Source: Escherichia coli 042 (GTDB taxonomy: Bacteria > Pseudomonadota > Gammaproteobacteria > Enterobacterales > Enterobacteriaceae). Taken from it: a stretch of DNA of 64,000 bases. Position numbers and translations under genes: made by a program. The notes below the pieces were generated by a model, which had not been told where the DNA came from, did not search any database, and was given only the letters and a program-made list of their open reading frames with translations. Positions 63,840 to 63,964 of this stretch are shown here, piece after piece. Each line of letters opens with the position of its first letter. Within the stretch, counting starts at the first letter, position 1. The stretch lies in the NCBI RefSeq assembly GCF_000027125.1, contig NC_017626.1; one strand, given 5' to 3'.

Positions 63840-63964
63840 GAACCAGTTCCCACTGCCAGAGGGGAGGGGCGGGTCAAATCCCTGTGACCTGACGTCTTCC
63901 GGACTGCCCGCCCCATCGTTTTTTTATACCCGCGAAAAATGAAATTTAACCAGGAGTGCCGCAT

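Follow-up and report, generated by a model that had tools for sequence, protein, structure and literature searches.

A probable cos site of the SfV/SfI/P27 type between the HNH endonuclease and small terminase genes of an Escherichia coli 042 prophage, with a conserved G-rich block upstream of the cut

The window analysed here is a stretch of 64,000 nucleotides from Escherichia coli 042, which carries at its right end one arm of a mosaic prophage adjoining ybhC. The genes of this arm run in the order Q, holin, endolysin, Rz, HNH endonuclease, cos site and terS, with the Q antiterminator gene at 60264-60752 and with holin S, endolysin, Rz and a short unknown ORF between it and the HNH gene. The ORFs for regulation and lysis are intact and match Pfam families over their full length. 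On the plus strand, the HNH gene (63489..63839) encodes 116 aa comprising an N-terminal zinc-ribbon-like Cys/His cluster and an HNH domain (PF01844, E 2e-16). The protein is 38% identical to HK97 gp74 over 65 aa (E 2e-10), 35.7% identical to the nickase of Bacillus phage Gamma (E 3e-9) and 40.7% identical to the phi105 nickase (E 4e-10), the homology to the Gamma and phi105 enzymes being near full length.

On the same strand, terS is announced by a ribosome-binding site, AGGAG (63952-63956), and an ATG at 63965 (MAGTAGRSGRRP...), the two together occupying 63952..64000; the gene is truncated by the window end 36 nt in, at codon 12. The ORF goes on in E. coli JB2 (99.9% identity across 62600-64000) to encode a 164-aa P27-family TerS (PF05119), followed by TerL (PF03354 + PF20441), portal, HK97-family protease and major capsid protein genes. 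The JB2 prophage sits at thrW/proA and shares with the window only the cos-proximal part. The stretch between the HNH gene and terS carries no RefSeq annotation. The initial annotation had pointed there to a GC-rich inverted repeat as a possible packaging site, and was right in placing it between the HNH ORF and the terminase start.

From left to right on the plus strand, this interval opens with a variable, unconserved linker (63840..63860) that leads from the HNH stop codon to the cos elements. An upstream cos element follows (63861..63880), consisting of a G-rich block, GGGGAGGGGCGGG (63861-63873; hereafter the G-block), and the heptamer TCAAATC (63874-63880), and then a fixed-length spacer (63881..63904) whose 3' end reads GGAC. 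The cohesive end, equivalent to cosN, is TGCCCGCCCC (63905..63914), with a putative bottom-strand nick on its left at 63904/63905 (GAC^TG, the caret marking the cut here and below) and a putative top-strand nick on its right at 63914/63915. Beyond it lies a predicted TerS recognition region resembling cosB (63915..63949), assigned by its position and its resemblance to the HK97 site, in which ATCG, a T7 run (63919-63925), ATACCCGCG (63926-63934), an A5 run (63935-63939) and TGAAATTTAA succeed one another. A second inverted repeat, an imperfect one, is made up of the A5 and T7 runs.

The two GC-rich octamers of the inverted repeat are both present inside 63840-63964, at positions other than those first given for them. 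The left arm, GGGGCGGG, occupies 63866-63873 (not 63874-63881), within the G-block, and the right arm, CCCGCCCC, occupies 63907-63914 (not 63911-63918), within the cohesive end. The spacer between the arms, noted as about 30 nt, measures 33 nt, and the T-run reported behind the right arm is indeed there, being the T7 run, which begins after a gap of 4 nt.

A megablast search against phage records matched the interval to the Shigella serotype-converting phages SfI, SfIV, SfV and SfII, to Salmonella phage ST64B and to several other E. coli and Salmonella phages, and several of the matching linear records start or stop within it. When the record ends were joined and the circularised junctions aligned, 63840-64000 was 100% identical to the SfIV junction, differed from SfI by 2 mismatches (63881 and 63915) and differed from SfV, SfII and ST64B by 10-13 mismatches, nearly all of them in the linker after the HNH stop. 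The order HNH-cos-terS is the same in SfI, SfIV, SfV, SfII and ST64B as in the window. The position at which a record opens is partly an arbitrary linearisation, since the SfV and SfIV records open 7 nt before the overhang and the SfII record opens at the HNH stop. The Sf phages integrate at thrW/proA in Shigella, whereas the window prophage lies next to ybhC in E. coli, and the remainder of the window prophage is a different mosaic from the Sf phages.

The termini of SfI virion DNA have been sequenced directly by run-off and compared with the prophage, which revealed a 10-nt gap, 5'-TGCCCGCCCC-3', and its authors concluded that SfI is packaged by a cos mechanism like that of SfV (PMC3636060). 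This decamer is window 63905-63914, and the SfI record terminates exactly with TGCCCGCCCC. Because the mapped SfI ends coincide with these positions, the right arm of the repeat is part of the cohesive end itself. The SfIV cos was stated to be identical to those of SfI, SfII and SfV (PMC3851460). At the homologous position, the phiP27 GenBank record carries a 10-nt misc_feature annotated as the cos site, CGCCCGCCCC, and the HK97 record terminates in the same register, GAC^CGCCGCCAAA^. Thus, the interval is very probably the cos of a lambdoid prophage with a packaging module of the SfV/SfI/SfIV/phiP27 type, comprising an HNH endonuclease, a P27-family TerS and an HK97-like TerL. The packaging reading offered at first is borne out by the SfIV junction and by the SfI termini, and of its two versions, "cos or pac", the former holds. 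A pac site for headful packaging was rejected on the ground that published work classes SfI and SfIV with the cos phages, unlike the pac phages Sf6 and SfX. As a cos site had already been mapped for the SfI/SfIV/SfV/P27 group, this part of the result is an ordinary finding.

Run-off reads that leave a gap, with no overlap, imply recessed 5' ends, that is, 3' overhangs, and the reported SfI gap therefore points to a 10-nt 3' overhang, a polarity in agreement with the 10-nt 3' overhangs of HK97. A cos of the lambda type, which would have a 12-nt 5' overhang, was considered and rejected. Lambda has 5' overhangs, a TerS of another family, no HNH partner and no sequence similarity to the interval, in contrast with the PF05119 TerS, the PF03354/PF20441 TerL, the HNH partner and the 10-nt gap in SfI. 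The closer comparison is with HK97, which shares with the window the G-block and TCAAATC, the 30-nt interval, GAC^CGCC..., a 10-nt overhang, ACCCG with an A/T-tract and then terS, besides an HNH homologue and a TerL of the PF03354/PF20441 architecture (that of the window prophage being read from JB2). It differs in its overhang, CGCCGCCAAA, which forms no inverted repeat with the G-block. The Stx2e phage phiP27, too, has the G-block and TCAAATC, together with the downstream module TTTTTACACCCGCGAAA and a TerS of the same Pfam family, but its overhang begins with C where the window has T, its spacer differs and its TerS is 49% identical.

The upstream element is conserved well beyond this group. 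We collected 240 IMG/VR loci with three HNH queries (the window type, HK97 gp74 and a Klebsiella type) and found a G-rich block followed by [T/C/A]CAAA[T/A] on the HNH strand in 215 of the 240, and on the opposite strand in none. From the C of CAAAT to the nick expected at GAC^YGCC, the distance is exactly 30 nt in 135 of 135 distinct sequences, which belong to three HNH lineages, including that of HK97. In HK97, P27 and SfI, the overhang, as mapped or annotated, is bounded on its left by this GAC^YGCC junction. The sequence of the spacer varies by lineage, the consensus lines of the window and HK97 types being identical at 8 of 24 positions, and yet no indel occurs in it. Across seven combinations of upstream and downstream modules, the columns held in common read GGG..G.TCAAA.C, then GAC.GCC. 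The distance from the HNH stop codon to the G-block, on the other hand, is about 21 nt in the window and about 266 nt in HK97, and in Gamma the block overlaps the stop. The position of the G-block is fixed relative to the cut and not to the HNH stop codon.

Variation among 43 distinct close relatives, scored as the mean minor-allele fraction, follows the same division of the interval. The linker at 63840-63859 has a mean of 0.278 and 0 invariant columns, against 0.035 for the G-block and TCAAATC, 0.005 for the overhang (8 of whose 10 bases were covered by the search anchor) and about 0.01 for the module downstream of the overhang. Such a profile of conservation in non-coding DNA is consistent with a cis-acting site.

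The initial annotation had treated the inverted repeat as the unit of interest, and it is this part of the claim that fails, as the two arms fall in two different elements and the HK97 cos does without the complementarity. One may still ask whether the repeat acts by itself, as a hairpin or cruciform or as symmetric half-sites for a dimeric packaging protein. The perfect 8-nt arms have their centres 41 bp apart, about four helical turns, the repeat is fully kept within the TGCCCGCCCC group, and in Gamma the block, GGGGCGG, and the overhang, CCGCCCC, are complementary over 7 nt. The length of the repeat, however, is not beyond chance: of 2000 shuffles of 63840-63965 that preserve dinucleotides, 7.2% contain a perfect inverted repeat of 8 nt or more whose arms are 3-60 nt apart, and 10.7% of the window's 126-nt tiles have one as well. 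Over 85 distinct homologous 57-mers, 52% of cells are paired when the eight positions are scored in register, as against 43-66% when one arm is slid by 1-3 nt relative to the other, and compensatory changes are absent. Complementarity reaches 8 nt only in the TGCCCGCCCC group; it falls to 5-6 nt (median 5) for Klebsiella and phi467 types and to a median of 3 nt for HK97 types, although the HK97 cos is biochemically active and the G-block is kept. In phi105, the C-rich block and the C-rich overhang lie on the same strand, a direct and not an inverted relation. A functional role for the repeat is thus very unlikely. Partial complementarity will be frequent wherever a G-rich block accompanies a C-rich overhang, and so the 8-nt match between G-block and overhang is an incidental by-product of the two cos elements.

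The same arms could also be read as a Rho-independent terminator for the HNH or late-operon transcripts, with a packaging role either nil or additional; that the element acts only as a terminator had been named at the outset as an outcome that would refute the packaging reading. The RNA fold does pair GGGGCGGG with CCCGCCCC, with U7 coming 4 nt later, and the SfIV paper mentions predicted Rho-independent terminators in that genome (PMC3851460). Nonetheless, a terminator scan called the canonical terminator at 63296-63321 and left the cos repeat uncalled, the loop is 33 nt long and the U-run is separated from the stem by 4 nt. The fold of 63836-63970 is unremarkable (z = -0.83, with 37 of 200 shuffles as stable). 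The site, moreover, lies inside the Q-dependent late operon, with the lysis and HNH genes on one side and the head genes on the other, where a strong terminator would block the head genes unless antiterminated, the pairing is lost in the HK97-type homologues and weak in the Klebsiella-type ones, and the mapped virion ends lie in the right arm. We therefore regard this reading as highly improbable; termination may be a weak secondary role of the site, and is not its main function.

Other candidate elements within the interval were tried as well. No Rfam 15 family matched 63840-63965 at the gathering threshold, nor did any when the E limit was raised to 5. A tRNA-like T-arm in GGGTCAAATCCC was dismissed, as neither ARAGORN nor Rfam reports a tRNA there and HK97 and Gamma lack the flanking complement. 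An IHF site in ATCAAATC was likewise set aside, being judged by eye a poor fit to the IHF consensus.

The downstream half of the site behaves differently from the upstream half. In HK97, the 15 bp recognised by TerS lie at +15..+29 and have an A-tract next to a C:G pair, at +21, that is essential (PMC11331095); this site reads CTAACCCGATTTTTT. ACCCG is found at +14..+18 in the window, followed by A5 so that the two span +14..+25, and at +18..+22 in HK97, followed by T7, so that the window core is 4 bp nearer the cut. From its position and the resemblance of its DNA, we predict that the T7-ATACCCGCG-A5 region is the TerS site. The downstream module varies with the type of TerS, reading T5-7-AYACCCGCGAAA with P27-type TerS, CCTTTTTTCACACCGCCGCAGGTTAG with phi467-type TerS, TAACCCGATTTTTTT with HK97 TerS and AACCGCGAAATGAAAAG with a fourth TerS type (L141), whereas the upstream module does not. 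Chimeras also occur, with an upstream half of the Klebsiella type and a downstream half of the P27 type that meet at the overhang or directly after it.

The resemblance between the two DNA sites does not extend to the proteins. Between P27-family TerS and HK97 gp1, BLASTP gave an E of 6.9, and hhalign with a 6-sequence TerS alignment gave a probability of 0.3%. In Pfam, the window-type TerS belongs to PF05119 and HK97 gp1 does not. An AlphaFold2 model of TerS (pLDDT 73.9) retrieved nothing from the PDB at E <= 0.001 with Foldseek, the HK97 TerS structure 6z6e ranking 17 (E 3.5, TM 0.34/0.50). With no TerS homology to HK97 gp1 detectable by these comparisons, the "arginine clamp" of HK97 is not transferable. 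Both TerS proteins have an R7-S8 at the N-terminus and a Ser-Arg before the C-terminal helix, features that serve as leads only.

In HK97, TerS stalls the motor at cos and the HNH protein gp74 stimulates cos cleavage, and the authors of that work suggested that TerL may cut one strand and gp74 the other (PMC11331095, PMC9410871). The HNH enzymes of Gamma and phi105 have been characterised as strand-specific nickases that cut CG^GT (AC^CG) and YG^GTY (RAC^CR), respectively, and Xu and Gupta, who described them, drew no connection from this specificity to cos (PMC3592412). At the left edge of the overhang, the bottom strand reads CG^GTC in the HK97, P27 and Klebsiella types, CA^GTC in the window and SfI and CG^GTAC in Gamma. 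Because GAC^YG matches the AC^CG motif of these characterised homologues, HNH is the enzyme most likely to nick the bottom strand, which would leave the top strand to TerL. Two observations from related enzymes and phages sit less easily with such a division of labour. The mapped 7-nt end of phi105 begins 1 nt past the AC^CG junction, counter to the nick model, and packaging HNH enzymes assayed alone, HK97 gp74 and sk1 HrdP, look non-specific. The overhang polarity of the Gamma group is disputed, one paper giving 5' (PhageTerm) and another describing 3'-extended ends.

The following course of events would be compatible with these data. On the concatemer, TerS would bind T7-ATACCCGCG-A5, 12-35 bp downstream of the cut by analogy with HK97, and TerL and HNH would nick 10 nt apart, on the bottom strand at GAC^TG (63904/63905) and on the top strand at CCCC^A (63914/63915). 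These staggered nicks would leave 10-nt 3' overhangs, and packaging would proceed rightward from terS to end at the next cos, where the motor would pass the G-block and stall against TerS. Lying upstream of the cut, the G-block is DNA that enters the head last. When TerL meets TerS, at about +15, the G-block would be roughly where the portal and TerL grip the DNA, and about 25 bp of DNA have been seen inside TerL. Speculatively, the G-block may be a cosQ-like termination element or an element that positions the nuclease, for which cosQ of lambda would be the analogue.

A comparable arrangement is found in phages of Firmicutes, the hosts of Gamma and phi105. Gamma has, like the window prophage, a homologous HNH nickase and a P27-family TerS, and it carries the upstream element at 30 nt; phi105 carries it at 29-30 nt, with a C-rich block. 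Gamma/Wbeta/Fah and phi105 thus resemble the window in having a G:C-rich block and YRAA 29-30 nt before AC^CG, and their cohesive ends are C-rich as well, CGCCGCCCC in Gamma (9 nt, after GTAC^) and GCGCTCC in phi105 (7 nt). The differences are that in phi105 the top strand of the block is C-rich and the mapped end is 1 nt off AC^CG, and that outside the motifs the Gamma and phi105 sequences are unrelated to the window. A wider scan of IMG/VR looked for a G:C-rich block and YRAA with AC^YG 29-31 nt further on, and took in Gamma-type, Geobacillus-like and phi105-type loci. The arrangement was found on the HNH strand in 229 of the 240 enterobacterial loci (opposite strand, 0), in 23 of 43 Gamma HNH loci (opposite strand, 1) and in 65 of 80 phi105 HNH loci (opposite strand, 0).

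With these comparisons in hand, we tentatively propose, as a possibility rather than a probability, that a G:C-rich block with T-Y-R-A-A, placed 29-30 nt upstream, is an undescribed subsite of cos in HNH-assisted packaging, at which HNH would cut the bottom strand of (G/T)AC^YG and TerL the top strand 7-10 nt away. The proposed subsite ranges from the Enterobacteria (SfV, P27, HK97 and Klebsiella types) to the Firmicutes (Gamma, phi105). It may serve as a brake or as a positioning signal for the complex of TerL, HNH and portal. We found no description of the G-block element in the literature searched, a full-text search for the block strings included, which does not by itself prove it new; the conserved upstream block is a new lead, if a modest one.

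The cos assignment would set the ends of the virion chromosome of this prophage, the top strand being cut at 63914/63915 as read from the sequence, and it explains a conserved non-coding stretch to which RefSeq gives no feature. Cos sites decide what a terminase packages, including satellites that copy the cos of their helper, for which SaPIbov5 is the precedent. The task of the HNH partner at cos was still called unresolved in 2026, and the invariant 30-nt spacing, together with the match of GAC^YG to the specificity of the HNH nickases, provides a testable model of its role. If true, the reading of the subsite and of HNH would tell which nuclease cuts which strand and why a second nuclease is needed.

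The prophage that carries the site may itself be defective, in which case the site would be a relic that is uncut here and yet usable by a cognate helper phage. The window ends at codon 12 of terS, with the structural genes beyond it, and its 20-kb mosaic prophage arm (44000-64000) is matched at >=80% coverage in 0 of 5426 complete E. coli genomes. The cos core, on the contrary, is very common in E. coli prophages, a 116-nt version of it occurring in 1161 of the 5426 genomes, with 811 records at least 99% identical. Many E. coli prophages with such cos regions are likely cryptic. We nevertheless consider a relic unlikely, as the upstream genes for regulation and lysis are intact, and as the cos region, HNH ORF and terS start are both intact and identical to those of SfIV, a plaque-forming phage.

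The left edge of the mapped or annotated cohesive end falls at an AC^CG / RAC^CR motif, the corresponding junction in the window being GAC|TG at 63902-63906, comparable to the HK97 record end (L012), to positions 899-903 of the P27 locus (L013) and to the Gamma record end (L262). AC^CG / RAC^CR is also the motif cut in vitro by the homologous HNH nickases from Gamma and phi105, and this coincidence suggests that the bottom-strand cos nick is made by HNH, although in phi105 itself the mapped end lies 1 nt off from the nickase motif.

Upstream of the nick, 229 of the 240 enterobacterial HNH-cos loci carry a G:C-rich block followed by T-Y-R-A-A, located 29-30 nt 5' of the cos nick; in the window, the stretch from block to nick spans 63861-63904. 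The same block and T-Y-R-A-A precede the cos nick by 29-30 nt in Bacillus phages of the Gamma and phi105 types (comparison loci L262/L263, L264/L265 and L266-L388), while in phi105 the top-strand version of the block is C-rich. No description of this element turned up in the literature that was searched. Besides, the database record of Staphylococcus phage LH1 (L389/L390) begins with CAAACG and ends in GCCCCCCTGCCC-N30-GGGTAC, so that precisely 30 nt separate a C-rich block from the GTAC terminus as deposited, both lying 3' of an HNH gene and 5' of terS.

Chimeric cos regions exist (L189, L195, L213, L214, L222 and similar loci; L141) and are of two kinds, one fusing a Klebsiella-type G-rich block, spacer and overhang start to a P27-type downstream module and TerS, the other joining a fourth TerS type to an HK97-type upstream half. 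Their breakpoints lie at the overhang or directly after it, and cos thus has the appearance of a boundary at which the HNH and terminase modules recombine.

Among the GenBank/RefSeq records of SfV, SfIV, SfII and ST64B (L003-L010), the linearisation point around cos varies: SfV and SfIV are opened 7 nt ahead of the overhang, SfII is opened at the stop codon of the HNH gene, and ST64B 15 nt ahead of terS. Record ends are therefore not a reliable indication of the physical termini in this group, and the RefSeq E. coli annotations carry no feature for the cos position.

Two further complementarities were observed near cos. A second, imperfect inverted repeat at 63917-63941 consists of a T7 run (63919-63925) and an A5 run (63935-63939) around ATACCCGCG; the two runs are paired in the RNA fold, and they may represent bendable A/T tracts around the predicted TerS core rather than a hairpin. 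Meanwhile, the overhang region at 63909-63920 is 83% complementary over 12 nt to AACGGCGGGGCG (63973-63984), a second G-rich partner located downstream, within the first terS codons; P27-type terS genes from Klebsiella conserve this partner, phiP27 does not.

A canonical intrinsic terminator, with an 11-bp stem, a 4-nt loop and a T-rich tail, lies 5' of the HNH gene at 63296-63321. Many unrelated phages of the lambdoid and P22-like groups, including Sf6, HK544, mEp460 and IME10, share the surrounding ~120-140 nt (63300-63440) at 93-98% identity, and the record of phage Ayreon labels this stretch 'terminator'.

Landmarks at 17587-19765 mark the initial part of the window as core E. coli chromosome: the RNA thermometer of cpoB/ybgF, seven clustered tRNA genes (5 Lys-UUU, 2 Val-UAC) and RtT repeats, three in number. 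The prophage arm (44000-64000) adjoins ybhC and encodes homologues of an integrase, RecT, a replication protein and a helicase. None of the complete E. coli genomes in the collection covers at least 80% of this arm, making it an unusual mosaic; the 99.9% relative of the cos-proximal part, in strain JB2, is located at thrW/proA, not at ybhC. Two accessory genes of the nin-like region encode a 301-aa PAPS-reductase-domain protein (57702-58607; PF01507, E 5.5e-8) and a homing-endonuclease-like ORF with HNH_3 and NUMOD4 domains (58946-59455; PF13392, PF07463), a second HNH unrelated to the packaging HNH.
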